From NCBI GenBank assembly GCA_027315405.1, contig DAHUYB010000087.1, positions 9,672 to 73,671 of the forward strand: a stretch of DNA of 64,000 nucleotides. The letters run 5' to 3'. Source of the DNA: Gammaproteobacteria bacterium. GTDB taxonomy: Bacteria; Pseudomonadota; Gammaproteobacteria; Natronospirales; REEB76. A program made the translations under genes and the position numbers. The notes beneath the pieces are model-generated. The model saw only the letters and a program-made list of their open reading frames with translations, had not been told where the DNA came from and made no database searches. Positions 11,284 through 62,300 of this stretch are shown here, piece by piece (the stretch's first letter is position 1; each line of letters starts with the position of its first letter).

Positions 11284-14217
<2,934 letters not shown>

Positions 14218-16643: not shown

Positions 16644-16654
16644 AAGTGGAAAAG

Positions 16655-27886: not shown

Positions 27887-29137
27887 ATGCAGGAGCTGCT
27901 GTTTCTGTGCCATCGGCTTCCGTATCCTCCCAACAAGGGCGACAAGATTCGCTCCTATCACTTATTACGGCATTTTGCCGAGAAATATCGCCTGCACCTC
28001 GGGACATTTGTGGATGACCCGGCGGATTGGCGGTATGTCGAGACGGTCAAGACGCTGTGTGCCGAGACCTGTATTCGCCCCCTGAATCCACTCTGGGCAC
28101 GTCTCAAGGTCTTGACAGCACTCGGGCGGGCAGAACCGCTCACCGTGGCTTATTACCGTGACCGGGTGATGCAACGCTGGGTGGACCGGATCCTGGCGAG
28201 GGCAACGGTGAAGGCAGTGGTAGCGTTTTCATCCGGCATGGCCCCATTCATGCTGCGAGCGGGCAGAGTGCGCCGGATAATGGATTTTGTAGATGTGGAT
28301 TCGGATAAATGGCGCCAATATACCGAAACCCATACAGGTATTGCCAGCATGATTTACCGGCGTGAAGCAAAGTGCCTCGCCGACTTTGAATTACGAGTGG
28401 CTGCCGAATCTGACGCTTGCACATTCGTGTCTGGAGCTGAAGCGGAATTTTTCCGCAAGCATGTTCCCGGCCTTGCGAGCAAGATTCACGGTATCCCCAA
28501 CGGCGTGGATACGGATTATTGGGATCCGATGCGCGATTACCCCAACCCCTACGCGCAAGGTCAGAGGACCCTGGTATTTGTCGGCGCCATGGATTACTGG
28601 GCCAATGCCCAGGGCGCGCAATGGTTTGCTAGCGCCGTCTGGCCACAGATACATAATAGATTTCCCGTTGCACGCTTTTATATTGTGGGGAGTAATCCTT
28701 CCAGGGCGGTAAGTGCGCTCGCCCGCATTGAGGGAGTGGTGATAACCGGTCGTGTCGAGGACGTTCGGCCTTACATATCCCATGCGCACGCCGTTGTCGC
28801 TCCCTTGCGCATCGCCCGCGGCATACAGAACAAGGTGCTGGAAGCGCTGGCCATGGGCAAGGTACTGTTGGCAACACCGCAGGCATACGAGGGTATTGAG
28901 GACTACAAGGAACGCCAGGGCTGTGTAAGTGACTCGGTGGACATTCTGGTGCGGGAGGCCGTGCGCTGGCTGGCGGAACCGACTCCGGCCGAGGTACCGG
29001 CAGTTCGGCAGCGGCTGCTTTCCTCTTATAGCTGGCAAAAGCTTTTTGACCGGTTTGATGTCCTGCTCAATGATGCAGCCGTGCTGGATGAAAGCCCAGC
29101 CGGATTTGCGGCTTCACCGGTTCGGGAGGCGCAGTGA
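27887..29137 (+). CDS. glycosyltransferase, 'stp1' type (PEP-CTERM/EpsH1-associated GT4-like)
   Basis: MQELLFLCHRLPYPPNKGDKIRSYHLLRH is the characteristic N-terminus. The C-terminal GT-B motif is ...APLRIARGIQNKVLEALAMGK.... It sits immediately upstream of xrtA. Confidence 0.85.
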   Translation: MQELLFLCHRLPYPPNKGDKIRSYHLLRHFAEKYRLHLGTFVDDPADWRYVETVKTLCAETCIRPLNPLWARLKVLTALGRAEPLTVAYYRDRVMQRWVDRILARATVKAVVAFSSGMAPFMLRAGRVRRIMDFVDVDSDKWRQYTETHTGIASMIYRREAKCLADFELRVAAESDACTFVSGAEAEFFRKHVPGLASKIHGIPNGVDTDYWDPMRDYPNPYAQGQRTLVFVGAMDYWANAQGAQWFASAVWPQIHNRFPVARFYIVGSNPSRAVSALARIEGVVITGRVEDVRPYISHAHAVVAPLRIARGIQNKVLEALAMGKVLLATPQAYEGIEDYKERQGCVSDSVDILVREAVRWLAEPTPAEVPAVRQRLLSSYSWQKLFDRFDVLLNDAAVLDESPAGFAASPVREAQ

Positions 29138-30711
29138 TGAGCCGGCTACTGGTGGTGAAATCCGGTAATTCAGCCCGCGTATCCGTATGGCAGGCTGCCG
29201 TCTGGGCGTTTGCAATTGTCGTGGTTATTCTCGGCGCCGGTTACTGGCGCACCATCGAATCATTGCTATGGGTATGGGGTCACGATGGAACATACCAATA
29301 TGCCTTTCTTATTTTTCCGCTGAGCATCTGGACCGCGTTCAATTTGCGTCACGAACTCCTGGCAGGCACTCCCAAGCCATGTATCTGGGGGTTGACGATA
29401 GTCGCCGGCCTGGGTTTTATCTGGCTTGTGGGCCAGCTTGTCAGTATCAATCTGGTACAGCATTTTGCCCTGGTCGCGATGTTCCCGGCATTAGTGCTGA
29501 CTTTCTGGGGTGCGCGCGCGGTTCGCGTACTGGCCTTTCCCCTGGGATATCTGGTATTTGCCATCCCATGGGGTGATTCGCTGGTGGGCCCATTACAGGA
29601 TTTCACCGCCCACTTCAGCGTGCGGGCCTTGGAATTGACCGGCACCCCGGTGATTCTCAATGGGCGTGAAATAATCACCCCCACGGCCACCTGGATGGTG
29701 GCGGATGCCTGCAGCGGCGTGAAATTCTTTATCGCCTGTACTGCATTAGGTTGCCTGTACGCATACCTTATATACCAGCGCTGGTGGAAGCGGATACTGT
29801 TTGTGCTGCTGGCGGCGGTGGTCCCCATTATTGCGAACGGCTTGAGGGTATTTTTTACCATCCTCATCGGCGACACCTGGGGCCTCAAATACGCCACCGG
29901 TACGGATCATCTGATATTTGGCTGGCAGTTTTTCGGCGGCGTGCTGGTTATCCTGTTGCTGCTGGGCTGGTTGTTTCGTGATCCTCTTGTCATAACCCGC
30001 CGTGTACCAAGCAATGGCCACAGGGCTTCCCCCTGGCATGGGGCTGTGTGGGCAATCGCCATCGTGCTGGTGATTGCCGGTCCGCTACTTGCGGCATGGA
30101 TACGATTACCCGGCGCCCCGGTTAACCAGGCGCAACTGGCGGCACCCCCAGTGCCCGGTTGGCTCGGACCAGAAAGTCCGCCGGCGAGCTGGAATCCGAG
30201 TTACCGCGGGGCCGCCGCTGAAATACAGGTGGCGTACCGTAACCGCGTCACCGGCGCCAGCATCGAGGTTTTTAATGCACTGTATCTCGGTCGCCCGCGC
30301 CGCGATCATAACCTGATTACCTACGGCAACAATGTCTATGATCCTGCTACGGCGAGAGTGTTGAGCGCTGCCACCCGAAGGATCCCCCTGGCCAGCGGGC
30401 ACTCAGCCCGAGTGCGGGAGCTGCGTCTGTCAACCGCGAACGGTCCGCGCATCGTCTGGTACTGGTACTGTGTCAATGGCCACTGCACAGCTTCCGCCAT
30501 ATTGGTGAAGCTGATGCAGGGTTTTTATGCACTGACAGGACGTGACTCCCGCTCCTCGGTATGGGCGGTCTCGGCAGTTGAAAATGCGGGTGGACTCCAG
30601 GCGTTGCGCACGAGCATGGCGGCTTTCGTACGTGCGGTCCCCGGCATTATCGGACAGGGACCACACCCGGATGAATCAGTTTGGGTGCATTCAGCGGCAA
30701 GCCGGCCATGA
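29134..30711 (+). CDS. xrtA: exosortase A fused to an EpsI-family domain
   Basis: 525 aa with about 8 TM segments. The exosortase motifs are read directly: ...VADACSGVKFFIA... (Cys), ...IANGLRVFFTILIG... (Arg) and ...TDHLIFGWQFFGG... (His). A ~200-aa C-terminal soluble part, ...VWYWYCVNGHCTASAILVKL..., resembles EpsI. The start is either GTG 29134 or ATG 29137. Confidence 0.92.
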   Translation: MMSRLLVVKSGNSARVSVWQAAVWAFAIVVVILGAGYWRTIESLLWVWGHDGTYQYAFLIFPLSIWTAFNLRHELLAGTPKPCIWGLTIVAGLGFIWLVGQLVSINLVQHFALVAMFPALVLTFWGARAVRVLAFPLGYLVFAIPWGDSLVGPLQDFTAHFSVRALELTGTPVILNGREIITPTATWMVADACSGVKFFIACTALGCLYAYLIYQRWWKRILFVLLAAVVPIIANGLRVFFTILIGDTWGLKYATGTDHLIFGWQFFGGVLVILLLLGWLFRDPLVITRRVPSNGHRASPWHGAVWAIAIVLVIAGPLLAAWIRLPGAPVNQAQLAAPPVPGWLGPESPPASWNPSYRGAAAEIQVAYRNRVTGASIEVFNALYLGRPRRDHNLITYGNNVYDPATARVLSAATRRIPLASGHSARVRELRLSTANGPRIVWYWYCVNGHCTASAILVKLMQGFYALTGRDSRSSVWAVSAVENAGGLQALRTSMAAFVRAVPGIIGQGPHPDESVWVHSAASRP

Positions 30712-43324: not shown

Positions 43325-44305
43325 ATGGAAAATGGATTAAGTGATTCTGGGTATTATCCGGCAGAGCATTTTATTTCCAAATCCATGGATTCTGATGCAC
43401 CCATCTTTCTTACAGGTTTTGCCCGCTCCGGAACCACTTGGGTGAATCATCTGTTTCGTGATTATTTTGATGCCGGATTTGTCAACGAAGGTCAATTCAT
43501 CGTTTCCTTCGGTTTGCGCCTGCATCGTTATGAGAATCTTAAAGAGCCCGGCAACCATAGACGGCTGATGCGGGATCTAGCCAAAGATGGATTTTTTTCA
43601 ATCTTGAGGAGAAACTACGCAATTGAAATTGACTGGGGAAGAGTTGGGGCAGTTAAACCGGAGTTTTCCGCTATCGTCCGGGAGGTGCTGCGGCAAATTG
43701 CCGAGGGATTGGGCAAACACAGAATTGGCTCCAAGTATCCCGTGTTCGGACGTTATATGGACCTTATGAATACGCTGTTTCCGGATTGCCGGGTTGTACA
43801 TGTGATACGTGACGGGCGTGACTGCGCACTGTCACATAAAAGGATGACCTGGGGTCATCAGAATACCTATTCCGCAGCCGTTCATTGGCGCGATTATTTA
43901 CGTACGCTGCGAAGTAGTGCGGAAAAGTTGCCAGGCAGATATCTGGAGATTCGTTATGAAGATCTGCTTCTAAATCCAGAGTCAACCATGCGAATTCTTG
44001 AGTATTTTGTAACCGGTACACATCAGGATTCTGCAACCAGACACTTTCTTGAGAAGCGGGGCGCACTGAAACCTAACAAGGTTGGTCAATGGCGCCGTGC
44101 AATGTCTCCACATTCACAGGCTGTTTTTGAAGCAGTTGCCGGTGATACGTTACGCGAGTATGGCTACGCACTGGTTGGTGAAAAGCATTATCTGTCGTCC
44201 TTGTCCAGAGCCGGATGCATCATACATGACAGGGTAAGCCGCGAAGCTTGGTACTGGGCAAGAAAAATCGTTCCGAAGATTCCGGAACACAAGCCATGGT
44301 CGTGA
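43325..44305 (+). CDS. sulfotransferase family protein (ST2)
   Basis: The 5'-PSB loop is IFLTGFARSGTTWVNHLF and the 3'-PB segment is VVHVIRDGRDCALSH. 326 aa. Confidence 0.8.
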   Translation: MENGLSDSGYYPAEHFISKSMDSDAPIFLTGFARSGTTWVNHLFRDYFDAGFVNEGQFIVSFGLRLHRYENLKEPGNHRRLMRDLAKDGFFSILRRNYAIEIDWGRVGAVKPEFSAIVREVLRQIAEGLGKHRIGSKYPVFGRYMDLMNTLFPDCRVVHVIRDGRDCALSHKRMTWGHQNTYSAAVHWRDYLRTLRSSAEKLPGRYLEIRYEDLLLNPESTMRILEYFVTGTHQDSATRHFLEKRGALKPNKVGQWRRAMSPHSQAVFEAVAGDTLREYGYALVGEKHYLSSLSRAGCIIHDRVSREAWYWARKIVPKIPEHKPWS

Positions 44306-44343
44306 GAGCGACAAATGTCAAGTTAGACATAGGAGAGATCACT

Positions 44344-46470
44344 GTGATAAATCGTGTAATCTGGCTTATATTGCGCCAGTTTGGATATGTGGCAGTGTTG
44401 TGTGTATTAACGAGCTGTGTGCAGACTGCTGCTGTGACGCAAACCGTAAACTCGGTTTCTGCCGGATCGAGTGATGTACCCATGGTGAAGGCGATTAACC
44501 TTTCCAACCAAAGGTTGCAGCAGGTTCCTGTTACCTTTGGGCAGCCTTTCCGTGCTGGTGCTGTACCGCGTGGTCATACGATAGTGGCTTATGCAGACGG
44601 TAAGGAGTTACCGACCCAGGCAAATATCAAGGCACGCAACCCTGACGGTTCGGCGCGTCATGCAATTCTGACTGTGCTATTGCCGACTCTGGACTCTCGA
44701 GCATCAGAAAATGTGAGTCTGCGCTCAGTCCCAGATACCGCGGTGGCAAGATCAAAAGCTCTGACGATTGAAGATGTCCTACACACCAAGTTTGATGCCG
44801 ATGTCCAATTTCAAATTGGCGGCGAACCTTGGCATCTCGATGCGAGAGTGCTACTGCAGCGCGCTTTGCGGGACGGGTCATGCAAGCCATATGGGCGTGA
44901 GTGCAATCAGTGGCTATCCGGACCATTGGTTTCAGAGTGGGTAGTCGGCGGACCTTTACTTGACGAGCAGGGCAAACCGCACCCCCATCTAGCCGTGTAC
45001 TTTGCGGTACGAGCCTATGGCCCGGTACCCGTGAGTCGCGTGCGTGTGGATGTGATCGTGGAAAACGACTGGGCCTATGCGCCGGATCCACATAATGAGC
45101 GTTACGACGGCACTATCAAAATAGGAGACCAAACGGTAGCTGCCGTCAAAGATCTCGAACACTATCGGCAGGCCCGCTGGCACAAAACGTTCCGCTGGGG
45201 CGCACCCGATCCTGTTTATGCGGAATTGAGTTCGCACTATCTGCAATATTCCCGCGCTGTTCCACGCTATGAAGATGTATACCCCTCAGAAGCGGTTTTG
45301 CGTAGGGTGCGGCAGACTTGCGCACCAATGCAGAATTGCGACCAGACCCGTTACATGGCGAATACCGGCGCACAGGACGCGATTGGCCCGTTGGCCCGCT
45401 GGAGTAGCGTCTATGTGATTGATCCGACCTACCGTGCCTATCGCTGGATGCTGGCGAACGATGATGCGCTTGGTGCCTACGGCATTCACTATCGCGATCA
45501 ACTTTCCGGTCAGCCGGTATCCGTTGAAGCGCACCCCTGTATGACGCTGTACGGTCCCGCGGAAGTCGCGCGTTGCCCTGTTCCACCCTACAAGAATGAC
45601 ATTTTCCCTCGTTGCAAGAATCAATGTAAAACGCCACTGTACCCGGATGAAGCGCATCATCCTGAACCAGCCTACGTGGCTTACCTTGTAACCGGGGATT
45701 GGTACTACCTTGAAGAATTGAAATTCTGGGCTGATTGGGTGGTATTCCATCAGAATCCAGCTTATCGGGATTACACCAAGGGGTTGATAGAAGACACCCA
45801 ACTTCGGGGCCAAGCCTGGGCATTGCGGACCTTGGGTTACGCTGCGTATATTCTTCCGGAAAATGATCCCCTGAAAAGTTATTTTAAGCGCGTGGTCGAG
45901 AATAATATTCAGTGGTATAACCAGAATTACACCGACAATCCTCGTGCGAATGCCTTGCACATTATCATCAATGGATATGCCACAGACTATACGTTTCGCG
46001 GCAAACCCCACACGGGGATGTCAACTTGGCAACAATCATACTTCAACTGGGCTGTGGGGAATCTGGCAGACCTGGGTTTTCCCGGTGCCGACAGATTGCG
46101 TAATTGGTTCGCCGTATTTCAGATCAACCTCATGACCAGTCCGGATTTTTGCTGGACTATGGCGACAACGTATATTTTGCAGGTGAGGGATTCAGCCAAA
46201 GGTCCTCTCTACGATTCACTGCATAGGGTCTATGCCAGAACGTTTCCCCAATTCGATCATGTAGCCTGCAATAGCAGGGGTGTGATGGTTGGACACCCGA
46301 AATCCCCAACCGGATATCCAGCCAGTTTCCAGGTCGGACTGGCCGCGGCTGCCGATTCCAATTTGCCTGAAGCCCGCAAGGCGTGGGCAAAATTCGCTCA
46401 AAGACTAGTTAAGCCGGATTATGCCAATGCCCCGCAATTTGCGATTATTCCGAGACACAGATCGGATTGA
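44344..46470 (+). CDS. large secreted protein of unrecognised family, predicted lipoprotein ('LpA'); paralog of 54428-57073
   Basis: GTG 44344 lies 6 nt after AGGAGA. The signal/lipobox is (M)INRVIWLILRQFGYVAVLCVLTSC. The alternative ATG 44296 overlaps ST2. Long blocks are shared with the 881-aa protein (see findings). Confidence 0.75.
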   Translation: MINRVIWLILRQFGYVAVLCVLTSCVQTAAVTQTVNSVSAGSSDVPMVKAINLSNQRLQQVPVTFGQPFRAGAVPRGHTIVAYADGKELPTQANIKARNPDGSARHAILTVLLPTLDSRASENVSLRSVPDTAVARSKALTIEDVLHTKFDADVQFQIGGEPWHLDARVLLQRALRDGSCKPYGRECNQWLSGPLVSEWVVGGPLLDEQGKPHPHLAVYFAVRAYGPVPVSRVRVDVIVENDWAYAPDPHNERYDGTIKIGDQTVAAVKDLEHYRQARWHKTFRWGAPDPVYAELSSHYLQYSRAVPRYEDVYPSEAVLRRVRQTCAPMQNCDQTRYMANTGAQDAIGPLARWSSVYVIDPTYRAYRWMLANDDALGAYGIHYRDQLSGQPVSVEAHPCMTLYGPAEVARCPVPPYKNDIFPRCKNQCKTPLYPDEAHHPEPAYVAYLVTGDWYYLEELKFWADWVVFHQNPAYRDYTKGLIEDTQLRGQAWALRTLGYAAYILPENDPLKSYFKRVVENNIQWYNQNYTDNPRANALHIIINGYATDYTFRGKPHTGMSTWQQSYFNWAVGNLADLGFPGADRLRNWFAVFQINLMTSPDFCWTMATTYILQVRDSAKGPLYDSLHRVYARTFPQFDHVACNSRGVMVGHPKSPTGYPASFQVGLAAAADSNLPEARKAWAKFAQRLVKPDYANAPQFAIIPRHRSD

Positions 46471-50150: not shown

Positions 50151-50160
50151 GTCGTAATAA

Positions 50161-51393: not shown

Positions 51394-51566
51394 TGCGTAT
51401 TAAATTGTAGCGGTAGCTTATGCTAACGTATGATTATAATGTACATTAGCAGTTACTGACTCAGCACAAGATTACAGGAATGGAACTGCATTACATGTTG
51501 TGTAAACAACAGTTGCCGCCCTATGAAAGGGCATCGTTTAATTGATATTCAATCAAGCCCGATATT

Positions 51567-52427
51567 ATGATCCCTGCTATCCAATATTTTAACCTTCCAG
51601 CCGAACTCTTAACATCAGAAATTGAGGAAGAATTCTTTTCTTCGTTGAAATTACGCAATGGGACGTATAAAACGACTTTTCAGAAACGCTTCTCAGATAT
51701 AAATAAGCAGATCCTAGTACTGCTGAAAACTACTGATATAAAAGTAGATAATATACTGGATATTGGCATCTCTTCAGGGATAAGTACACTTGAACTGGTT
51801 GAGGACTTAAATTCAGCGGGCTATACAAATCATATCGTCGGTACGGATTTGCTAATGGACGCTTATATCGTGCATATATTTCCAGGTTGTTATGCACTTG
51901 TAGATAACACCGGCTATCCACTAAGATTTGATTTGTTCAAATGGAGTATCAAACCCTGGATTATAAGAACAGACTATCATAATGGTTTCTTCATTTTCCG
52001 TAAATTCATCAATCTTATATTTGTATATCGCGCAAAGAATCTGATTGCCAAATCCAAGCATGCGGATGTCCAGAAGGTGAAACTTATCACACCAAAGCTA
52101 TTAAGTCACACTAATGTGGTTATTCAGATGGGTGATATAACTAAATTTAATTATTCGTATAGAGAAAAGTTCAATTTCATAAGGGCTGCAAATATATTGA
52201 ACGTGAGTTATTTTACGAAGGCGGAATTAGTCGCAATAATTAACAATATTAAACATTATTTTACGAAGCCAAGTGGAACTTTATTGGTAGTGCGCACCCA
52301 TGAAGACGGGAGCAACCATGGCAGCTTGTTTAATATTGCTAACCATAGCAAGTGTGAAGTTATTGGGCGATTTGGAGCGGGTTCAGAGATAGAAGATATT
52401 GTACTTGCGTCAATAAATAAGCACTGA
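51567..52427 (+). CDS. putative class I SAM-dependent methyltransferase
   Basis: 286 aa in very AT-rich DNA. Motif I-like is NILDIGISSGISTLEL, the acidic end of beta-2 is IVGTDL, and later blocks are FIRAANILNV and GTLLVV. The assignment rests on motif resemblance only. Confidence 0.55.
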   Translation: MIPAIQYFNLPAELLTSEIEEEFFSSLKLRNGTYKTTFQKRFSDINKQILVLLKTTDIKVDNILDIGISSGISTLELVEDLNSAGYTNHIVGTDLLMDAYIVHIFPGCYALVDNTGYPLRFDLFKWSIKPWIIRTDYHNGFFIFRKFINLIFVYRAKNLIAKSKHADVQKVKLITPKLLSHTNVVIQMGDITKFNYSYREKFNFIRAANILNVSYFTKAELVAIINNIKHYFTKPSGTLLVVRTHEDGSNHGSLFNIANHSKCEVIGRFGAGSEIEDIVLASINKH

Positions 52428-52548
52428 CAAATTTTATTTAACCTTACATTCCCAAGGTGAATATGAACGGATTGGAAGCGCGGATTATAGATTCCCTTGG
52501 TTAAAGCCGGTGGAATCTATAAAGATGCATTAGTATTCGGAGACTGAA

Positions 52549-53199
52549 ATGCAAGCAGATGTCCATTCTAGGCAACTGATTATCGGATGTGGAACAGGTA
52601 GATGTGGCACTGTATCTTTGATGCAGTTTTTGAATAGCCAAGTGGATGTTTCCATACTCCATGAAGGGCTGACCGCCGATAAAATCCACCACCTCATCCC
52701 ATGGTATAAAGGGGAAACTCAGCTGTGGTCTTGGATGATTGAACTTGAGAAATTGTCAAACGGAGCAAGATGGTACGGGGATATCGGTTTTTACTATCTC
52801 CCTTATCTTCCGAAGATATTTGACCGTTATCCAAAATCACGTGCCATCTGCCTCGAACGGCGCAAGAAGGCAGTGATCCAAAGTTTCCTTAAAAAAACGA
52901 CTGGAAGGAATCACTGGTACATGCATAAGGGCGTAGGTTGGAAAGAGGATGATGAATGGGATAACACTTTTCCTTACTATGCAGAGCTGAACAAATCCAA
53001 GGCCATTGGTTTATATTGGGAGCAATATCACAGTACAGCTTTGGAATATTGCGCACTGTTTCCGGATCAGTTTATGTTGGTGCCTACATCGGCACTGAAT
53101 ACGACAAAGGGCCGACTGAAGATATTAGGGTTTATCGGCTACGATAGAGAAGCCATGCTTGATGGGCAGTTCCGAGCGAATAACATCCGCCCTAAATGA
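52549..53199 (+). CDS. hypothetical protein, possibly a divergent sulfotransferase-fold enzyme (ST3-like)
   Basis: 216 aa. The N-terminal P-loop-like segment LIIGCGTGRCGTVSLMQFL sits where the PSB loop would be. AICLERRKKAVIQSF resembles an R-x7-S 3'-PB segment. The similarity is weak and motif-level only. Confidence 0.45.
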   Translation: MQADVHSRQLIIGCGTGRCGTVSLMQFLNSQVDVSILHEGLTADKIHHLIPWYKGETQLWSWMIELEKLSNGARWYGDIGFYYLPYLPKIFDRYPKSRAICLERRKKAVIQSFLKKTTGRNHWYMHKGVGWKEDDEWDNTFPYYAELNKSKAIGLYWEQYHSTALEYCALFPDQFMLVPTSALNTTKGRLKILGFIGYDREAMLDGQFRANNIRPK

Positions 53200-53306
53200 T
53201 GGGGCTTGATTGTTTATGGTCTTGAAGATTACGGAATTCTTAAGGTGGTCCACCTGATATCTGATCGTGGTGCTATGTCAGATTTGATACTCATTCGGGA
53301 TATGAA

Positions 53307-53996
53307 ATGATATTGCTGATCACGCAAGTGATGATATTGTGTTTTCTAATTATTTCTGTAGCGCTTTGGGGAGGGTATTTTCCTCATCCTTCCCCCTTAA
53401 TTCGACGTTGGTTGCCGCCACGTAAGCGCTGGCCTGAAGCGCAGATTCGGCGATGGCTGAAGACGGGGAAATTTCAGCGGGCATTTCTGAATTATTTTTA
53501 TCGTGATCCAGAGCGCACACCACCTCTCGGCAACAGCATTCTCGCTCCCGCTGACGGGGCGGTAACTAGTGTTGAGGTGCGCGACGGAGTGCGCTATCTG
53601 GTGATTGCACTCAGTTTCTGGGACATGCATGTACAACGCAGCCCCGTGTCCGGCAGAGTGGTCAAAGTGGAGTCACATGGAAGTGATTTTATGGACGGCG
53701 AAGGACGGAAATTCGCTTTTCTCAGAGAGAAACCCTGCCCGGTACAGAAGCGTGTGGTTATTGCCACGAGTGTGGGAGAAATTGCGGTGCGGCTGATTAC
53801 CAGTCTTGCAGCGCGTCGTATTGAAGTCTGGGTGCGGGAAGGGGGGAGACTTGTGCGTGGACAGAGAATCGGCCGGATTTTGCTGGGCAGCACCGTGGTG
53901 CTTGAGCTACCTGCAACCATAAACCTTAGCGTACAAGTGGGTGAGCGTGTTAAAGCGGGTGAAACCGTTGTTGCACAGGAAATGATCTCAGTATGA
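53307..53996 (+). CDS. phosphatidylserine decarboxylase family protein (short, membrane-anchored type)
   Basis: 229 aa with an N-terminal TM segment. ...ILAPADGAVTSVE..., ...WDMHVQRSPVSGRV... and ...GQRIGRILLGSTVVLELP... are present. The last contains the LGST self-cleavage motif of pyruvoyl PSDs. Confidence 0.75.
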   Translation: MILLITQVMILCFLIISVALWGGYFPHPSPLIRRWLPPRKRWPEAQIRRWLKTGKFQRAFLNYFYRDPERTPPLGNSILAPADGAVTSVEVRDGVRYLVIALSFWDMHVQRSPVSGRVVKVESHGSDFMDGEGRKFAFLREKPCPVQKRVVIATSVGEIAVRLITSLAARRIEVWVREGGRLVRGQRIGRILLGSTVVLELPATINLSVQVGERVKAGETVVAQEMISV

Positions 53997-54196
53997 ACGC
54001 ATTCTGGTGGACATCCGGGCATCTGGGTTGGGGCATTTTTGCACTGATCGCGTTTACGGGAATATGGTGGTTGTTGTTCGATTTGTGCTGGCGCTTGGTT
54101 ACCATCAGGATAAACCGGCTCTTGACCGTGATGGGCATAGGATGGTTGGTTGGCGTTGCCTGTATTTTACTGGGTTTCTATGTGGCTGGCTGGTAA
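53993..54196 (+). CDS. small two-TM membrane protein, translationally coupled to the PSD-like gene
   Basis: ATGA overlap with the upstream gene. 67 aa, Trp-rich, with two hydrophobic helices: GWGIFALIAFTGIWWLLF and VMGIGWLVGVACILLGFYVAGW. Confidence 0.6.
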   Translation: MNAFWWTSGHLGWGIFALIAFTGIWWLLFDLCWRLVTIRINRLLTVMGIGWLVGVACILLGFYVAGW

Positions 54197-54427
54197 AACC
54201 GGAAGTTCAGCAAGCCCGGTAAACCGGATTTCCCTGAATTAAAAAACCGCGCTCTGGCGGCAATCAGTCAGTGCGACCGCCCATCGTGAAAAATACGCCG
54301 TTCATCCATTCAAATGCAAAACCTTTAGTGTAGAAACTATACTCCAGCCTCGATACGCGGATTAAATAACAACGATTATCTGTAATTCATTGGTTTATCA
54401 ATATGTATATGCTGTCAGGAGATAACG

Positions 54428-57073
54428 TTGAAGTCAGCACTGTGTCTACCGTTCGATTTCGCCTGGCTGTCTTGGCGAGCCCTGGGTCGGGACAGCCTGA
54501 TACACGGCAAGAGGGCTGGCGGAAATTCTCTTGATTTCCCCAAAATAGCCAGGTTGCCGTTGACGGGGTTATCCATTGTATGTGTGTGTGCTGGCGCGGC
54601 GCTCACGATAGGTGTTGCGCAAGCCGGCACGCTGCTAGTCACCAATAACCTCATCAATGAGGGCTCACAAGCGCAGGCTAATGTTCCGGTTACCTTCGGG
54701 CAGATTTTCAAGGGCGGTGATGTGCCTGCCGGCGAGACACTCAGTGCGACATTAGGCGGTCAGCCTATCCAGTTGCAGATTGATACCAAAGCCACCAACC
54801 CGGACGGCAGTCTGCGCCATGCGGTATTGACGGCGCTAGTTCCCTCGATCTCCGGTAATTCCACCGCGCCGCTTGCCTTGTCCACCGCAGCACCTTCGAC
54901 GCCAGGCTCTCCAGTTACGCTTACCCAATTGCTTGCCACCTCGTTTGACGCCACCGTGGATATCAATATCGGCGGGACGGATTACACTGCAAGTGCGAAA
55001 CAGTTGCTACAGGCGAACCAAGCTGCCTGTGCTCCCTGGAACACCGCTTGCAATGTGTGGCTCTCCGGCCCCTTGGTCAGCGAGTGGATTGTGGGCGGGC
55101 CGGTGAAAAGCTCGGGAGGCACAGCGAACCCCAACCTCCAGGTCTATTTTGATGTACGAGCTTATGCGGGGAACCCCATCAATCGGGTGCGTGTGAATGT
55201 GGTCATCGAGAACGACTGGGCGTATACGCCGCAGACAAGTATTACTTATAACGCTACCCTGACATCAGGGTCGGATACCTACACCATCAGCAACCTCACC
55301 CACTATGCCTATGCCCGCTGGCATCACGTGCTGTGGTGGAACGGCAGCAATCCTGACATTTATGTCCAGCAGGACACCCAGTACATTCAATCCACCGGGG
55401 CAGTTTCGCGCTACGAGGTGCTGACTCCGGACAACTCTTTCCTGAGCAATCGTATCCAGTCGTGCTTACCTATGCAGCATTGTGACCAGACCTTGACCAT
55501 GGGTAATACCGGCGCGCAGGACGGCATTGGACCTCTGCCGCGCTGGACCTCGACCTATATCGTTGATCCGGATTATCGCGCCTATAATTGGATGCTCGCC
55601 GACGACGATGCCATTGGAGCCTATTCCGTGCATTACCGGGATCAGGCAACAGGGTTGCCGCTCAGCATTATCAAACATCCGTATGTGACTACCGCTGCCT
55701 GGAACTATGCCAATTCCGTAGCGAAACAAAATCCCACTACTTGGGGTAAAGATCTGCTGCCGAATTGCAACAGTAGTAGTGCGAATTACTGCGTGAACAA
55801 TCCCGACCAGTTCGACAACGCCCATCACCCCTCAGTTGCGTTTGTTTCTTACATGGTTACCGGGGATTACTACTATCTTGAAGAAATGCAATATGTAGCT
55901 TCCTACCTGGAGCTGTGGGCCAACCCACCCTATCGTGGCTATTCACAGGGGTTGGTTTATGCCGCCGAGGAACAGACTCGCGGTAAGGCGTGGACAATGC
56001 GCAGCATCGGCGATGCCGCTTACCTTACCCCGGACGCTGACCCCATGAAAGCCGAGTTCACCGCGGATATCAACAATGCGGTTGCGGATTTCATTGCGCA
56101 GACGGCTAACAATCCAAACGCCAATCCACTTGGCCTGGTGTCGAATTATTTCTACTCCGTTAACGGAGGCACCAATAATGGTGCGGCGCCCTGGCAGGAC
56201 GATTTCTTGACTTGGGCGGCTGGCCATTTGGCGGAACAAGGTGTTCCGGGCGCCAGTACCCTGCTGAATTGGAAGGCGCAATTCCAGATTGGCCTGATGA
56301 CTGACTGGTTCAATAATCCGACTCAGGGATATTGCTGGTTGGAGGCTTCCGCCTATTCACCACAGTTCAAGGATTCGTCGGGGAATTTCTTACCAACATT
56401 TACGGCTGTGTACCAGGTCAATTTCCCGACCTTGTATGGACTGACATGCAACAGTCCGCAAATGGTGACCGCCATGGGCTTACTCGAACATGCTACATGG
56501 CAGGCGGGAGAGATGCACGGCTATCCTAATTCAGCTACCGGATTCCCGGCCAACCTGCAGATCGGACTAGCCGCGGCTGCGGCCAGCAATTTGCCGAACG
56601 CTCAGCAGGCCTGGCAGACTTTCCAGGGCCGGAGCATCCAGCCGACCCCTCCCAACAGCTATAACGACTACCCTAATTTTGCCGTCCTACCCCGTTACTT
56701 GCCGGCGGTCCCCATCGTAAATCTCTATGCCAGCCCCAATCCGGTGGCGGCGGCGGGAGATACCACTACCCTGTACTGGAATGCCAGCAATGCCACCAGT
56801 TGTTCGGCCCCCTGGACCGGCAGTACCGCGACTTCGGGTCAGATGACCGTGACGGTTAGCGCGAATGCTGCCTTCCCGATCACCTGCACCGGACCGAATG
56901 GCTCCACCAACGACCCCGTGAGCGTTTCCATTGGCAGCGGCACGACGACGACGCCCCCCCCACCTCCGGCCACGTCCCCACCCGCGGCAGGGGCGGGAGG
57001 CGGCGCCATGAGTTGGTTGGCCCTGGTGTTCCTGATGACCGTGGCTGGGTGGGCAAGGGCAAAGCGCCGCTGA
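54428..57073 (+). CDS. large secreted protein of unrecognised family ('LpB'), paralog of 44344-46470, with extra Ig-like domain, Pro/Thr linker and C-terminal sorting signal
   Basis: TTG 54428 lies 7 nt after AGGAG. The signal-like segment is ...LPLTGLSIVCVCAGAALTIGVAQA/GT. The C-terminus reads ...TTTTPPPPPATSPPAAGAGGGAMSWLALVFLMTVAGWARAKRR. The start codon is uncertain. Confidence 0.8.
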   Translation: MKSALCLPFDFAWLSWRALGRDSLIHGKRAGGNSLDFPKIARLPLTGLSIVCVCAGAALTIGVAQAGTLLVTNNLINEGSQAQANVPVTFGQIFKGGDVPAGETLSATLGGQPIQLQIDTKATNPDGSLRHAVLTALVPSISGNSTAPLALSTAAPSTPGSPVTLTQLLATSFDATVDINIGGTDYTASAKQLLQANQAACAPWNTACNVWLSGPLVSEWIVGGPVKSSGGTANPNLQVYFDVRAYAGNPINRVRVNVVIENDWAYTPQTSITYNATLTSGSDTYTISNLTHYAYARWHHVLWWNGSNPDIYVQQDTQYIQSTGAVSRYEVLTPDNSFLSNRIQSCLPMQHCDQTLTMGNTGAQDGIGPLPRWTSTYIVDPDYRAYNWMLADDDAIGAYSVHYRDQATGLPLSIIKHPYVTTAAWNYANSVAKQNPTTWGKDLLPNCNSSSANYCVNNPDQFDNAHHPSVAFVSYMVTGDYYYLEEMQYVASYLELWANPPYRGYSQGLVYAAEEQTRGKAWTMRSIGDAAYLTPDADPMKAEFTADINNAVADFIAQTANNPNANPLGLVSNYFYSVNGGTNNGAAPWQDDFLTWAAGHLAEQGVPGASTLLNWKAQFQIGLMTDWFNNPTQGYCWLEASAYSPQFKDSSGNFLPTFTAVYQVNFPTLYGLTCNSPQMVTAMGLLEHATWQAGEMHGYPNSATGFPANLQIGLAAAAASNLPNAQQAWQTFQGRSIQPTPPNSYNDYPNFAVLPRYLPAVPIVNLYASPNPVAAAGDTTTLYWNASNATSCSAPWTGSTATSGQMTVTVSANAAFPITCTGPNGSTNDPVSVSIGSGTTTTPPPPPATSPPAAGAGGGAMSWLALVFLMTVAGWARAKRR

Positions 57074-57622
57074 ATCCGCCCGTTTGCGTTACCTGAACTG
57101 GCACAAATTAGCGGTTCATTTCCTTGGCGAGGTTGTGGTATGGCATGAAATACCCGCTCAGTCCCGCTGAAATAAGCAGGCACCGCGTGCAAACTGCCGG
57201 CCCATCATAACAACCTGCTGGAAGGGCAATCCCGACTTGCCGTCACGGCCTTAAGCTCATACGGATACCTTACGCAGCGATACTGCTTCCGGCAGGACGC
57301 AACGCTATCGTCGCATCCTCCATACCAACCTCCGTTAAAGTGCACCTTGCACCGCAGACTCGGTGCTGCTTACGCCCGCCGCGGCTACCGCGAGCGATCC
57401 TTGGAGTTCCTAAAGGAGACTCCTCGCCTCGGGCTTGCCCTTCCTTAGAAGACCCCTCATTTTTTGGCCTGTATCGTGAACTGGATCCGCTTCCTGAACC
57501 CCGCCTCACCAGCCGGGCTCCAGGTCTCGCGGGCTCCACGCGTCCGGGAGCGGTAATCCATAATATGTTTGGGTACCTCTGGTACACTGAACATAATATC
57601 TACCAAGGTGAAACACATCGCC

Positions 57623-58795
57623 ATGGAAAAGCGGCTCAGGATTGACCTGATTGCGGCGGCCCGGCCCAATTTCATGAAAATTGCACCCTTGTTTCACGCC
57701 CTGCGCGAAGAACCCTGGTGCAATTTGCGGCTGGTACATACAGGCCAGCATTATGACCACAATATGTCGGATACCTTTTTCAAGGATCTGAACTTGCCAC
57801 CTCCCGATCTGCATCTGGGGGTCGGAAGCGGCAGCCACGCCGAACAGACAGCCAGGGTTATGCTGGCGTATGCACAAGCCTGCACCGGGACTCGTCCTGA
57901 TCTGATTGTGGTGGTTGGCGACGTCAATTCAACGCTAGCTTGTGCGCTGGTAGGCGCAAAAGTATGTATCCCGGTCGCGCACCTGGAGGCCGGATTGCGC
58001 AGCAATGATCGCACCATGCCTGAGGAAATCAATCGCCTGGCAACTGACACCATCGCCGATATCCTCTGGACTCCGTCGCCCGACGCGGACGAAAATCTGG
58101 CTCGCGAAGGTGTGGCGACGGCAAAAATTACCCGGGTGGGTAATATCATGATTGACTCCTATGAACTCATGCGGGACCTGATTCAGGCCAGCGGGATGCG
58201 GCGAAGTTTGGGATTGGAAGGCAAGGATTACGGCGTGGTGACATTGCACCGCCCATCCAATGTCGATGTCCCCGTGCTTCTGGGGAAGCTAGTGGGTCAG
58301 CTGGTGAAGATTTCAGAAAAAATTCCAATCATCTTTCCGGTCCATCCACGCACCCGCAAAAACCTGGAACGCTTTGATCTTTGGCAACAACTCACGGTTG
58401 CTCCGGGCATACAAGTCATCGAACCCCTGGGATATGTGGATTTCATGAATCTGGTCTGCGGAGCACGGCTGACCGTAACGGATTCCGGGGGTGTCCAGGA
58501 GGAAACCACCTACCTCGGCATACCCTGTCTTACCTTGCGCGACACTACCGAAAGACCCATCACTGTCACACAGGGCACCAACCGTTTGGTTACAGCGGAT
58601 AATCTTTTGCCGGCAATCAACGACATTCTGGCCGGTCATTGGCCGCGGGGGCGCAAACCGGGACTGTGGGATGGGAGTACGGCCGCACGCGTGGTTGCTG
58701 ACATCACAAAACGCATGAAAATCCCGCAGCCAGCCGTTGTTCAGGATGACAGGAATAGTAATGTATCCGGCAAGAGAATGTTCAGTAATATTTGA
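57623..58795 (+). CDS. wecB: UDP-N-acetylglucosamine 2-epimerase (non-hydrolysing)
   Basis: ATG 57623. MEKRLRIDLIAAARPNFMKIAPLFHAL..., then ...HTGQHYD..., ...VVVGDVNSTLA..., ...HLEAGLRS... and ...DSGGVQEETTYLGIPCLTLRDTTERP.... The track start 57569 is an extension. Confidence 0.92.
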   Translation: MEKRLRIDLIAAARPNFMKIAPLFHALREEPWCNLRLVHTGQHYDHNMSDTFFKDLNLPPPDLHLGVGSGSHAEQTARVMLAYAQACTGTRPDLIVVVGDVNSTLACALVGAKVCIPVAHLEAGLRSNDRTMPEEINRLATDTIADILWTPSPDADENLAREGVATAKITRVGNIMIDSYELMRDLIQASGMRRSLGLEGKDYGVVTLHRPSNVDVPVLLGKLVGQLVKISEKIPIIFPVHPRTRKNLERFDLWQQLTVAPGIQVIEPLGYVDFMNLVCGARLTVTDSGGVQEETTYLGIPCLTLRDTTERPITVTQGTNRLVTADNLLPAINDILAGHWPRGRKPGLWDGSTAARVVADITKRMKIPQPAVVQDDRNSNVSGKRMFSNI

Positions 58796-58854
58796 ACTAC
58801 GTGTAGTCCCGTCAAGTGTAAAAAGTCATGCTATCTGTGATGAATGCCGCGTAA

Positions 58855-60936
58855 ATGCACATTATCGTAATTGTTGGCTATCTTATTGGAACCATTGCTT
58901 TCCTGGCATGCAGTTTGTTGCTTGTCAGCAGTTGGCGTGGCCAACGCACTGGCGCCTTGCTGATACTGGCAACCGCGGTATCCGCACTGTGGTGCGCCTT
59001 TCTGGCCTATGCCGCGTGGCAAGAAACAATTCCGGTAGCCTGGGTCTTTATTGCTGAAATCCTGCGCTATGGAGCGTGGCTCGGCTTTGTGACGGCATTA
59101 TTTGGGTCATGGAAGATGCCGGGTTTGCTCAGAGGATTACGCTGGTGCGTTCACATCCTGTGGGTTGCGCTCGCGCTTTACTGTCTGTGGCCGCTTACGG
59201 GACTTCCACAGCATACCGCCATACGCTTCGTAATCAGCGTGCCGGTTATTGGCATGCTGATTCTTCCCTTGGCCGGATTGGTTTTTCTGGAACAGCTTTA
59301 CCGCAATGTCCAGCCAGAACAGCGCTGGGCTCTTAAATTTCTGATGATTGGTCTTGGCAGTATATTTGCCTACGATATCTTTCTGTATTCTTACGCGGCG
59401 TTATATAAAGAAATCAGCCTGAGCGCATGGGCCGCGCGCGGGTTCGTCAATGCCCTGGTGGTGCCATTACTCGTAGTAGCTGCTGCGCGTAATGCGCAAT
59501 GGTCCTTACAGGTCGCGGTTTCCCGTCGTGTGGTCTTTTATTCCAGCAGCTTATTTGCGGTTTCAATTTATATTATTGCCACTGCGATTGGCGGATATTA
59601 CGTCCGCATGTATGGCGGTGATTGGGGGCGGGTTGCGGAAATAACACTTGCCTGTTGCGCTGTACTGATTCTGTTCCTGATCGCGTTTTCAGGGCACGCA
59701 AGGTCACGGTTGAAAATGTTTTTGCACAAGAACTTCTTCAATTATCGGCATGATTATCGCCAGGAATGGCTGCTCCTCACTGCAACATTATCCAGTGGAA
59801 ACGGAGAACTAAGCCTGCATGCGATTCAGGCCCTGGGTCAGATCATGGACAGCCCAGCGGGGATCTTGTTTCTTGGAAATGAATCCGGTGAATTCGTTTC
59901 GGTCGCCAATTGGAACATGCCCGATCCGGCGGATCTGAAATTCAATTCGACCTTACCACTATTTGAGCGCATGCGTGAACGGCAGTGGATCTATGATTTT
60001 GGCCAACAGCCGCCGTTGGGAGAGGAAAAGCTCGCGGCACCGATTGAATTGAGCGTGCTGCCAAATGCTTGGCTGATGGTGCCGCTGATTCTGGATGCGC
60101 AACTCATGGGTTTTGTGGTGTTGGCTCAGGCCCGGGCGCGGCGCAAACTTGATTGGGAAGATATAGATCTATTGCGAACCGCCGGTCACCAGGTGGCCAG
60201 TACCCTGGCACAGGCGATCAATGCCCGGCGTTTGACGGAGACGCGACAGTTCGAGGGCTTCAACCGGCTCACCGCGTTTGTAATGCACGACATAAAGAAT
60301 CTGGTTGCGCAGCAGTCTTTATTGATCAAAAACGCGGAACGCCACAAGCATAACCAGGTGTTTGTGGACGATATGCTGGCAACTGTCGAAAATTCCGTTC
60401 AACGGATGACAGGGCTGCTCGATCAATTGCGTGGTGACACAACATCGAAGCCGCGCAACCGTGTGCACCTCAATGCCGTTATTGAACGGCTGATTAAGGA
60501 GCGCGGATTACAGTCACCAAAACCAGTATATGTGGCAACAGCCGAGGATCTGTGTGTATTGGCAGATACCGAGCAGCTGATAACAGTACTTGGCCATATC
60601 ATTCGCAATGCCCAGGAGGCAACGCCGAGTGACGGACACGTGCAAGTCCGCGTGCGCCGCGATAAGGATCGCGTGTGCATCGAGGTTGAAGATGACGGGG
60701 AAGGCATGGATGAGGGGTTTGTCCGTAACCGTCTGTTTGAACCTTTTTTTACCACCAAATCCAGCAAGGGCATGGGTATAGGCGCTTATCAAGCAAGGGA
60801 ATATGCTAGGTCACTGGGCGGGAACGTGCGTGTCAACAGCACGCCTGGCCACGGTACGGTATTTACCATGCTGCTGCCGTTGGATATTTCACCCCATGAG
60901 ACTTTCGAGGATGGCTGGAAGAGGGCATCATCTTGA
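58855..60936 (+). CDS. prsK: PEP-CTERM-system sensor histidine kinase
   Basis: 693 aa. The N-terminal ~300 aa are polytopic membrane, followed by a GAF-like middle. The H-box is ...FNRLTAFVMHDIKNL... and the HATPase part is ...EVEDDGEGMD..., ...FFTTKSSKGMGIGAY.... It sits directly upstream of prsR. Confidence 0.88.
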   Translation: MHIIVIVGYLIGTIAFLACSLLLVSSWRGQRTGALLILATAVSALWCAFLAYAAWQETIPVAWVFIAEILRYGAWLGFVTALFGSWKMPGLLRGLRWCVHILWVALALYCLWPLTGLPQHTAIRFVISVPVIGMLILPLAGLVFLEQLYRNVQPEQRWALKFLMIGLGSIFAYDIFLYSYAALYKEISLSAWAARGFVNALVVPLLVVAAARNAQWSLQVAVSRRVVFYSSSLFAVSIYIIATAIGGYYVRMYGGDWGRVAEITLACCAVLILFLIAFSGHARSRLKMFLHKNFFNYRHDYRQEWLLLTATLSSGNGELSLHAIQALGQIMDSPAGILFLGNESGEFVSVANWNMPDPADLKFNSTLPLFERMRERQWIYDFGQQPPLGEEKLAAPIELSVLPNAWLMVPLILDAQLMGFVVLAQARARRKLDWEDIDLLRTAGHQVASTLAQAINARRLTETRQFEGFNRLTAFVMHDIKNLVAQQSLLIKNAERHKHNQVFVDDMLATVENSVQRMTGLLDQLRGDTTSKPRNRVHLNAVIERLIKERGLQSPKPVYVATAEDLCVLADTEQLITVLGHIIRNAQEATPSDGHVQVRVRRDKDRVCIEVEDDGEGMDEGFVRNRLFEPFFTTKSSKGMGIGAYQAREYARSLGGNVRVNSTPGHGTVFTMLLPLDISPHETFEDGWKRASS

Positions 60937-62300
60937 CCGAATCCGCACGCACGTTACTAATCGTAGAGGATGACCCCGGCTTGCAAAGCCAATTACGCTG
61001 GAGTTTTGATAGTTACAACGTCATCATTGCCGGGGACCAAGCTGCTGCGCTTGCTGAAGTGCGCCGTCATGAGCCAGCTGTGGTATTGCAGGACCTGGGC
61101 CTTCCGCCGGACCCCACTGGTACGAGCGAAGGCTTTGCTTCACTCTTGGAGATTCTTCGTCAGGCGCCTTATACCAAAATTATCGTGATCACTGGCAACG
61201 GTGACCGGGATAATGCCTTGCGATCCATAGAACTGGGGGCCTATGATTTCTGCTCCAAGCCTTTGGACGTGGAGGTTCTGCGCATCATAGCGGCACGCGC
61301 TTTCCAATTGCACGAGCTGGAAGTGGAAAACCACAGTTTCAAGGGCCTGTCGGCCTCACTGCTGGATGGCATTATAGCCAAAAGCGAGTCAATGCTGAGC
61401 CTCTGCCGGCTTATCGAGAAGGTTAGCAACACCAACGCAACTGTGCTGCTGCTCGGAGAAACAGGTACCGGCAAAGAACTGTTTGCGCGCGCGTTACATC
61501 GTCTCAGCCCGCGCCGTGATGCGACATTCACCGCCATCAATTGCGCCGCCATACCTGAAAACCTGTTGGAATCGGAATTATTCGGCTACGAGAAGGGCGC
61601 TTACACCGGAGCCAGCAAGCAGACAAAGGGGAAAATAGAGCTTGCACAAGGAGGCACACTGCTGTTGGATGAGATCGGCGACATGCCGCTTGCATTACAG
61701 GCAAAGCTCTTGCGTTTCCTCCAGGAGCGGGTGCTGGAACGTGTCGGAGGACGCGAGGAAATACCGGTGGATGTGCGAATAGTCTGTGCCACGCATCAGG
61801 ACCTTCAGGCGCTCATTCATGCGGGGCGATTTCGTGAAGACTTATATTACCGCATCAGCGAGGTCGTCATGACGATTCCGCCGTTGCGAGAAAGGAACGG
61901 CGACGCGGTGCTGCTTGCACGGCATTTTCTTGAGCTGGCAGTCAAGCGTCATGGTCGGCCCATACGCAGTTTTACTCCCGAAGCATTGCGGGCGATTGAC
62001 AAACATCATTGGAAAGGGAATGTCCGTGAACTCGAGAATGCGATAAATAGTGCAGTAATCATGACCGATGGAAGCCAGATTACACCTAATGATTTGGGTC
62101 TGGCAGCGGTCCCGGGTGACGAGAATATACCGACTTTGCGTCAAGCGCGTATGGCGGCTGAAAAGCGGGCGATACAACAGGCACTGGCAAGAACAGAAGG
62201 AAACCTGTCAAGGGTAGCGGATTTGCTCGGCATAACCCGGCCAACACTTTACGATCTATTGGAAAAATTGGGATTTGATAAACCCGGCGATGCACGTTGA
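60933..62300 (+). CDS. prsR: sigma-54-dependent response regulator of the PEP-CTERM system
   Basis: The TTG start overlaps the prsK stop (TTGA). The receiver is LLIVEDDPGL...D. The AAA+ part has Walker A LLGETGTGKE, a GAYTGA loop and Walker B LLLDEIGD. The C-terminal Fis-type HTH is ...NLSRVADLLGITRPTLYDLL.... Confidence 0.9.
   Translation: MTESARTLLIVEDDPGLQSQLRWSFDSYNVIIAGDQAAALAEVRRHEPAVVLQDLGLPPDPTGTSEGFASLLEILRQAPYTKIIVITGNGDRDNALRSIELGAYDFCSKPLDVEVLRIIAARAFQLHELEVENHSFKGLSASLLDGIIAKSESMLSLCRLIEKVSNTNATVLLLGETGTGKELFARALHRLSPRRDATFTAINCAAIPENLLESELFGYEKGAYTGASKQTKGKIELAQGGTLLLDEIGDMPLALQAKLLRFLQERVLERVGGREEIPVDVRIVCATHQDLQALIHAGRFREDLYYRISEVVMTIPPLRERNGDAVLLARHFLELAVKRHGRPIRSFTPEALRAIDKHHWKGNVRELENAINSAVIMTDGSQITPNDLGLAAVPGDENIPTLRQARMAAEKRAIQQALARTEGNLSRVADLLGITRPTLYDLLEKLGFDKPGDAR

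Follow-up and report, generated by a model that had tools for sequence, protein, structure and literature searches.

Within an exopolysaccharide (EPS) locus of an uncultured gammaproteobacterial lineage lies a gene whose product, here called LpB, joins an enzyme-like core to a C-terminal extension with the composition of a surface-display cassette. The gene occupies positions 54428..57073 on the plus strand of a 64,000-nucleotide stretch of contig DAHUYB010000087.1 (assembly GCA_027315405.1). This whole stretch is referred to below as the window, and it holds a complete EPS locus of the XrtA/PEP-CTERM type. LpB is encoded by one intact open reading frame (ORF) of 881 codons and a stop, the start codon being probably TTG and uncertain. 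The interpretation that we favour, with a probability of about 0.5, is that LpB is a Sec-exported, glycan-active enzyme of the EPS locus that carries a surface-display cassette.

The extension consists of three parts, all on the plus strand. An immunoglobulin (Ig)-like beta-sandwich module with two conserved cysteines (residues 763-833; 56714..56926) is followed by a disordered linker of Ser, Thr and Pro (residues 834-854; 56927..56989), and by a tripartite tail of the GlyGly-CTERM type (residues 855-881; 56990..57070). The tail, GAGGGAMSWLALVFLMTVAGWARAKRR, is laid out as GAGGGA, then the transmembrane helix MSWLALVFLMTVAGWA and then the basic end RAKRR. In the AlphaFold2 model residues 763-833 form a six-strand beta module with block values of the predicted local distance difference test (pLDDT) of 78-91, residues 839-862 are disordered (pLDDT <50) and residues 863-879 form a helix. 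The module of about 80 residues, the TTTTPPPPP linker and the tail were thus all present exactly as the first-pass annotation of this DNA had described them. The extension as a whole had been overestimated at about 170 residues; homology between LpB and its core-only paralog LpA stops at LpB residue 757 (LpA residue 737), which leaves 124 residues (758-881). A Pfam search with the Ig module alone returned no family, the VesB-like Ig family included. The Ig module and tail used together as a query for other proteins with this cassette recovered fragments of LpB orthologs only.

A homology search yielded 832 relatives, and the closest 17 are 59-96% identical to LpB. Every one of these 17 retains the Ig-like module, a sequence-variable linker of Ser, Thr and Pro, and the tail. 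The pattern K-G-G-G-A-M-x-W-L-x-L-V-x-L…RR is conserved in the tails down to 59% identity, while the linker varies freely. An independent assembly (L006) carries a near-identical LpB gene, and L042 has an intact ortholog. In a comparison with the 72%-identical ortholog of locus L001, core and Ig module gave ratios of nonsynonymous to synonymous substitution rates (dN/dS, Nei-Gojobori) of 0.128 and 0.126 respectively, and the tail one of 0.196. The continuous frame, the conserved architecture and these ratios together show that the extension is translated and under purifying selection. The first-pass annotation had allowed for the extension being a separate ORF or a frameshift artefact, and checked against the 17 orthologs and the substitution ratios this alternative, extended to errors of assembly, has a negligible chance of being correct. 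Nothing in LpB itself speaks for it; the scrambled tail of one ortholog (P0008) is consistent with a frameshift in that contig, whereas the same architecture in an unbroken frame recurs in many independent assemblies, with selection on both Ig module and tail.

One close relative is rearranged. In L042 (GCA_054638455.1, 5288-10606) the intact LpB ortholog is followed by a minus-strand gene of 507 aa with an SGGxDS PP-loop-like motif, and beyond that gene the final ~500 nt of LpB occur a second time, under the annotation of a 201-aa protein (P0314). We rejected P0314 as a split LpB ortholog since it is a duplicated 3′ fragment beside an intact gene, and from the sequence the 3′ end of the gene seems to have been rearranged locally.

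The class of the tail bears directly on the sorting of the protein. The sole NCBIfam match of LpB is GlyGly_CTERM (TIGR03501), to which the tail alone scores 20.3-20.8 bits against a cutoff of 15.5. Of 12 ortholog tails, 11 are matched by the same model when E-values up to 10 are admitted, the best being 1e-4. The PEP-CTERM model TIGR02595 matches two of the 12 tails at E 0.21 and does not match LpB at E up to 10. The Pro-Glu-Pro motif, sought before the helix, is missing in LpB and in 17 of 17 orthologs. The PEP-CTERM tails encoded nearby in loci L001 and L004 served as a control, and they do match PEP-CTERM and PepA models, those in L001 with 25.4 bits against a cutoff of 16. These canonical PEP-CTERM proteins (IPEPGVLGMFGLGL, VPEPQVLGMFGIGLL) adjoin LpB orthologs that bear the Gly-rich tail, indicating that the lineage uses two distinct signals. 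LpB also has the layout expected of GlyGly-CTERM proteins: an N-terminal signal peptide and, as the very last part of the chain, the Gly-rich motif, helix and basic cluster. On these sequence comparisons the tail is best read as belonging to the GlyGly-CTERM class and not to PEP-CTERM, and LpB is probably a substrate of rhombosortase and type II secretion and not cargo of XrtA.

The locus does encode an exosortase A, fused to an EpsI domain (29134..30711, plus strand; 289.8 bits against a cutoff of 208), and one may ask whether the tail is a degenerate PEP-CTERM variant cleaved by this enzyme from 24 kb upstream, which would make LpB the locus's own cargo. LpB lies inside a complete XrtA/PrsK/PrsR locus, exosortase subfamilies accept variant motifs (the VPLPA-, VPDSG- and IPTL-CTERM models of NCBIfam), and a scan of all ORFs in the window found a tripartite C-terminal tail in LpB only and no canonical PEP-CTERM protein. 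L001 has such a gene, for a canonical PEP-CTERM protein of 295 aa (13154-14041), between the LpB ortholog and WecB; tblastn found no trace of it in the ~500-bp gap at 57074-57568 of the window, so that the 64 kb contain an exosortase but no PEP-CTERM cargo. Against this assignment stand the missing Pro-Glu-Pro motif in all orthologs, the near-complete failure of TIGR02595 on the tails, and the two distinct signals encoded side by side in L001 and L004. We regard it as quite improbable; the XrtA-EpsI fusion is the locus's own sorting enzyme and probably does not act on LpB. For the assignment of PEP-CTERM cargo a genomic exosortase is necessary and not sufficient. The proposal that LpB is the only candidate sorted cargo in the window therefore holds in that no other ORF bears such a tail, and fails in that the exosortase context points to the wrong sorting enzyme.

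PEP-CTERM cargo of XrtA, such as PepA in the floc-forming Zoogloea and Aquincola, resembles LpB in its tripartite C-terminal signal and in being encoded in XrtA/PrsK/PrsR EPS loci (PMC1569441, PMC9850573). It differs from LpB, which has neither the PEP motif nor a model match and whose orthologs stand beside canonical PEP-CTERM genes in sister loci. A closer parallel is found in Vibrio cholerae. There, rhombosortase cleaves VesB after Gly-Gly and glycerophosphoethanolamine is attached (PMC6219818), and a reporter is brought to the surface only by the Ig fold of VesB together with the GlyGly-CTERM and its unstructured linker (PMC13393428). Judged from the model, the LpB extension mirrors this cassette, with Ig fold, linker and GlyGly-CTERM in the same order. 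VesB and other rhombosortase substrates (VesA, VesC and Xds; ExeM of Shewanella) are, as is predicted for LpB, secreted enzymes of hydrolytic type with an N-terminal signal peptide, and VesB-type substrates share with it the whole C-terminal succession of Ig fold, unstructured linker, Gly-rich motif, transmembrane helix and basic tail. A GlyGly-CTERM suffix that is present in some family members and absent from others is a feature of the original description by Haft (PMC3237569) and of the LpB family alike. LpB departs from the VesB type in that its passenger is a PL26-like glycan enzyme instead of a protease or nuclease, its gene lies within an XrtA EPS locus, its Ig module matches no Pfam family, and it belongs to an uncultured lineage of Gammaproteobacteria for which the window and 42 loci showed no rhombosortase.

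What the putative cassette would display is suggested by the fold of the core, which spans residues 67-757. Residues 67-314 (54626..55369, plus strand) form N-terminal beta domains, namely a RIFT barrel like that of PcRGLX (Pfam match at residues 81-132) and a beta-sandwich. They are followed by a highly conserved Cys-containing loop of low model confidence (residues 340-381; 55445..55570, plus strand) and, from the AlphaFold2 model and Foldseek, a twelve-helix barrel of (alpha/alpha)6 type (residues 383-733; 55574..56626, plus strand). The models of LpB (pLDDT 79.7, predicted template modelling score 0.82) and LpA (91.5 and 0.91) both place the beta domains before the twelve-helix barrel. For both, the best Foldseek match in the PDB is the PL26 exo-rhamnogalacturonan lyase (5xqj/5xqg; probability 1.0), with E-values of 1.6e-6 and 3.5e-6; further matches combine a beta-sandwich with an (alpha/alpha)6 barrel (GH15-like, GH78, GH94, GH88/GH105, PL27 and epimerases). 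The sole Pfam match in the core is the RIFT barrel PF19501, which LpA reaches with E 7e-5 and 23 bits, above the gathering score of 22.1, and LpB with E 6e-4 and 20 bits, below it. The same domain was found in seven of seven distant family members tested (E 6.6e-7 to 1e-2, three of them above the gathering score) and also among precomputed matches; the other PcRGLX Pfam domains had no match in LpA or LpB. PcRGLX of Penicillium chrysogenum (PDB 5XQ3, 5XQG, 5XQJ) shares the RIFT barrel at the level of sequence and, by a remote match to the models, the beta-sandwich and (alpha/alpha)6 barrel; it is a fungal pectin-degrading enzyme, while LpA and LpB are bacterial and encoded in an EPS locus. The label of an uncharacterised family given by the first-pass annotation is accordingly right for function and wrong for fold, in which a RIFT barrel, a beta-sandwich and an (alpha/alpha)6 barrel are recognisable.

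Conservation within the family is extensive. Among 150 diverse representatives 50 residues are near-invariant, with an identity of 93% or more. Roughly one half of these are polar or charged, and most of the others are Gly, Pro or aromatic. The polar set includes H131, R244, E261, R297, H402, R404, H466, Y475, R518 and R525. In the barrel H402, R404, H466, Y475, D480, E486, R518, W522, R525, D536 and K541 are near-invariant family-wide, and in the loop C346, C352, Q354, G362, Q364, G368, P369 and W373 are invariant. Nearly all near-invariant positions are invariant in the family alignment A2, which contains LpA and LpB, and the near-invariant residues are retained in both proteins, a comparison that in LpA did not take in E219, D480, E486, D536 and K541. 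The conserved Cys pairs of alignment A2 fit an extracytoplasmic protein. With the modelled fold as the guide, the core would be a glycan-active enzyme, most likely one that cleaves or trims the EPS of its locus.

Several observations weigh against this picture of LpB as a displayed glycan-active enzyme, and its main weakness concerns the sorting enzyme. A scan for motifs and transmembrane segments in six-frame ORFs found no rhomboid-like ORF in the window and 42 loci, and NCBIfam annotation found no rhombosortase among the window genes. According to the published survey, rhombosortase target and protease genes are adjacent mainly when the genome has a single target and lie far apart with several (PMC3237569). 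On full-length LpB the score of TIGR03501 is 15.2 bits, just below the cutoff of 15.5. Short tail models cross-react, MYXO-CTERM weakly matching five of 12 tails, and the Gly-rich tails of distant family members score poorly on curated models. For the core, the fold match to PL26 is remote (template modelling score 0.23-0.36, root-mean-square deviation 12-20 Å, 8-10% identity), and a search of PDB sequences with the family profile retrieved no PL26 chain and one chance match to an antifreeze protein. We take a PL26-like fold as supported, and the core may or may not belong to PL26 itself. Judged from the models, a lyase, a hydrolase or an epimerase would all be compatible with the core, and the uronic acid sugar enzymes of the locus, which are TviB/TviC-like, are at most compatible with a lyase substrate.

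The weak points of the sorting argument are those on which a simpler account would build. The tail could be a plain stop-transfer anchor, leaving LpB as a bitopic inner-membrane protein, uncleaved and with no lipid attached, whose enzyme domain stands on the Pro/Thr stalk in the periplasm near the Wzx/Wzy polymerisation and export machinery. For such a protein a signal peptide, one C-terminal helix and basic residues suffice, and these are all that the sequence holds on this view; the borderline score of full-length LpB and the rhombosortase not found in the window or the 42 loci agree with it. It would need neither the Ig module nor a conserved motif, and yet K-G-G-G-A-M-x-W persists before the helix to 59% identity while the linker varies, the GlyGly-CTERM model recognises 11 of 12 tails, and the Ig module, linker and tail reproduce the VesB cassette. 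We find the plain anchor doubtful, if worth keeping in mind.

A separate doubt, independent of the sorting question, is whether the core cuts the polymer at all. It could modify it at the polymer level, for example as an epimerase, or be a non-catalytic EPS-binding or scaffold protein. The (alpha/alpha)6 matches include cellobiose 2-epimerases, AGE-family epimerases and phosphorylases, and the similarity to PL26 is remote. A PL26 lyase is nevertheless the best match for both models and the N-terminal RIFT barrel of PL26 is shared at the sequence level; the near-invariant His, Tyr, Arg, Asp and Glu among the 150 representatives favour catalysis over binding; and EPS loci often encode a cleaving enzyme, as with AlgL, PslG, BcsZ and ExoK. 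A core that does not cut is thus unlikely in our view.

If LpB is a displayed glycan-active enzyme, its path may be outlined as follows. The signal peptide would be cut between AQA and G, and the C-terminal helix would park the protein in the inner membrane. A rhombosortase encoded elsewhere would then cleave after the Gly-rich motif and add a lipid of phosphatidylethanolamine type, and the Ig module would let the type II secretion system carry LpB to the cell surface. There it would cleave or trim an acidic, probably sulfated, uronic-acid-containing EPS. LpA would perform the same chemistry while N-terminally lipidated and facing the periplasm.

LpA is encoded at 44248..46470 on the plus strand (740 codons; likely start ATG at 44296) and has the core only. 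As the first-pass annotation had proposed, it has this core in common with LpB, pairwise BLASTP giving 41% identity over 728 aa (E = 0), and the two have different localisation formats: LpA is a predicted lipoprotein with a plausible lipobox (VAVLCVLTS followed by Cys57 of the ORF, cleavage falling between LTS and C), and LpB has the Ig-like module, stalk and C-terminal tripartite signal. The lipobox was defined as [LVI][ASTVI][GAS]C closing a signal peptide, and lipoboxes occur in 24 of the 258 family sequences that have an M start. The dN/dS between LpA and LpB that had been suggested as a check was computed, and with synonymous sites saturated (proportion of synonymous differences 0.70) the ratio is uninformative, for which reason comparisons between orthologs were taken instead. 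LpA against its L001 ortholog gives 0.117, indicating purifying selection. Two copies are present in one Rhodanobacteraceae locus, one of them LpA-like with 60% identity and the other LpB-like with 56%, so that the duplication is old and both copies have been kept. The sequence comparisons support LpA and LpB being ancient paralogs with one enzyme-like core, and a division of labour between an LpA facing the periplasm and an LpB at the surface would be reasonable.

The family to which both belong is large, with 4138 clusters among 1.84 billion representatives in a profile search, 1472 of them below 1e-30. Many of the matches are parts of giant multidomain proteins in which they are joined to modules of the Ig, FN3, Kelch or LamG type. 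Two far larger members, from a gammaproteobacterial metagenome-assembled genome (MAG) and from a Thiohalobacter MAG, end in Gly-rich tripartite tails. The Ig-like pattern …L-x-W-x-(A/S)-S-(N/D)-A-x-S-C-x-A…SG…, for which there is no Pfam model, recurs in other family members; such a module stands near the N-terminus of an ORF in L023 and, without a tail, at the extreme C-terminus of P0074.

At its other end LpB has a signal peptide of the signal peptidase I type (residues 41-66; 54548..54625, plus strand), KIARLPLTGLSIVCVCAGAALTIGVAQA followed by GT, which ends in …AGAALTIGVAQA before GT with an AXA cleavage site (AQA before G) and contains no lipobox. The model shows a helix at 42-61, and the A-x-A and the TVVT after the signal peptide are conserved in alignment A2. 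The 40 codons before it (54428..54547, plus strand) may be an N-terminal leader or a conserved untranslated region, the DNA being more conserved than in the coding body. The putative TTG start sits 6 nt past AGGAG. Against the L001 ortholog, codons 1-40 have a synonymous rate (dS) of 0.089, compared with 1.58 for the core, and a dN/dS of 2.1, and they show no codon-position bias. Over the stretch 54194-54640, made up of the intergenic DNA and some 70 initial codons, identity to L001 is about 85-90%, whereas synonymous sites in the gene body are near saturation. The odd dS and the unusually conserved DNA over these codons are the reason why the start is uncertain. The conserved stretch upstream of LpB may be a regulatory or leader element. 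An Rfam search with it gave zero matches, and no convincing sigma-54 promoter (-24/-12), as expected under PrsR control, was found upstream of LpB; a sigma-70 site was also sought there and none was found, the sigma-70 and terminator scans being uninformative.

The genes around LpA and LpB make up the remainder of the EPS locus. Its products are TviB/TviC-like enzymes that make the precursor of a uronic acid sugar; a priming glycosyltransferase, the glycosyltransferases stp1 and stp2, a Wzy-like ligase, a flippase and an export protein; a chain-length determinant, a tyrosine kinase, an ATPase and an outer-membrane protein; a deacetylase, an amidotransferase, a FemAB-like protein and three sulfotransferases; the XrtA-EpsI fusion; and WecB, PrsK and PrsR. 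The last three (57569..62300, plus strand) are conserved downstream neighbours of the family gene. Three Salinisphaera genomes have the family gene immediately upstream of WecB, a priming glycosyltransferase, PrsK and PrsR. MAGs of Rhodanobacteraceae and Oleiagrimonas have it between WecB-PrsK-PrsR and a pair formed by a phosphatidylserine decarboxylase (PSD)-like gene and a small membrane ORF. In a Massilia genome TviB/TviC, a priming glycosyltransferase and PrsK are found at a distance of about 4-10 kb from it, with no WecB match. The positional relatives in these loci are of ~740 aa and tail-less, which marks the Ig/linker/GlyGly cassette as a lineage-specific suffix on the LpB branch.

The same pair stands directly upstream of LpB (53307..54193, plus strand), the PSD-like gene at 53307-53996, matching PSD models below their cutoffs, and the hydrophobic 67-aa membrane ORF, which overlaps its end, at 53993-54193. 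It adjoins family genes in L001, L004, L008, L011-L013 and L015, tail-less ones included. We considered the PSD-like gene as a source of an ethanolamine-type lipid or head group for a GlyGly anchor, by analogy with C-terminal anchoring in archaeosortase systems, and this idea is weakened by the presence of the pair beside tail-less family genes in Rhodanobacteraceae and Oleiagrimonas.

Other features of the locus concern the polymer itself. Sulfotransferase-family genes (three in the locus) and other decorating genes lie at 33860-34858, 43325-44305, 52549-53199 and 15366-17686, and the genes for EPS decoration comprise those for TviB/TviC-like enzymes, WecB, three sulfotransferases, two deacetylases, an amidotransferase and a FemAB-like protein. 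This gene content suggests an EPS that is heavily decorated, sulfated and uronic-acid-containing, which would be unusual for bacteria. An ORF of 372 aa at 39603-40721 (plus strand), 68% conserved in locus L013 of Oleiagrimonas, weakly matches pectate lyase (PF09492/TIGR02474) and the C-terminal domain of squalene-hopene cyclase; the matches suggest an alpha/alpha toroid, and the ORF may encode a second glycan-cleaving enzyme of the locus. The region 48000-54000, with GT2, orf286, sulfotransferase and PSD-like genes, has a G+C content of 0.45-0.49 against 0.52-0.64 elsewhere, and its gene content varies among related loci (L001 compared with the window). It looks like a variable part of the locus, possibly horizontally exchanged.

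Enzymes of biosynthetic loci that are expected to cut the polymer of the locus are a recurring theme, and ExoK/ExsH of Sinorhizobium, AlgL, PslG and BcsZ share it with LpA and LpB. The ExoK/ExsH pair uses different export routes; LpA and LpB are homologous copies with different localisation signals. Their fold families differ from those of ExoK/ExsH, AlgL, PslG and BcsZ, and localisation would be by N-terminal lipidation in LpA and by GlyGly-CTERM in LpB. Taking core, locus and tail together, one may tentatively speculate that the core is a new carbohydrate-active family, a distant sister of PL26, dedicated to XrtA/PrsK-PrsR loci. In this lineage one locus would be wired to two C-terminal sorting systems, exosortase for PEP-CTERM matrix proteins and rhombosortase with type II secretion for a matrix-cutting enzyme, and the cassette would be portable and have been grafted onto a previously soluble enzyme. 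We hold this joint reading to be possible without leaning on it.

The findings vary known themes, those of polymer-cutting enzymes in EPS loci and of enzymes with GlyGly-CTERM, and their main value lies in an entry to a large unannotated family and in a caution to annotators that the exosortase of a locus does not necessarily sort every protein with a tripartite tail encoded there. PEP-CTERM/XrtA loci drive the formation of floc and biofilm matrix in many environmental and wastewater bacteria. The family, with its 4138 clusters functionally unannotated and with no solved relative detectable by sequence, offers a testable candidate for a polymer-shaping enzyme in XrtA loci, and its core is possibly a new lyase or hydrolase family. 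The positional orthologs with and without the Ig/linker/GlyGly-CTERM cassette constitute a natural experiment on what surface tethering adds. If our reading of LpB is true, the GlyGly-CTERM/rhombosortase route would reach beyond proteases and nucleases to an EPS-processing enzyme, and to an uncultured gammaproteobacterial lineage.

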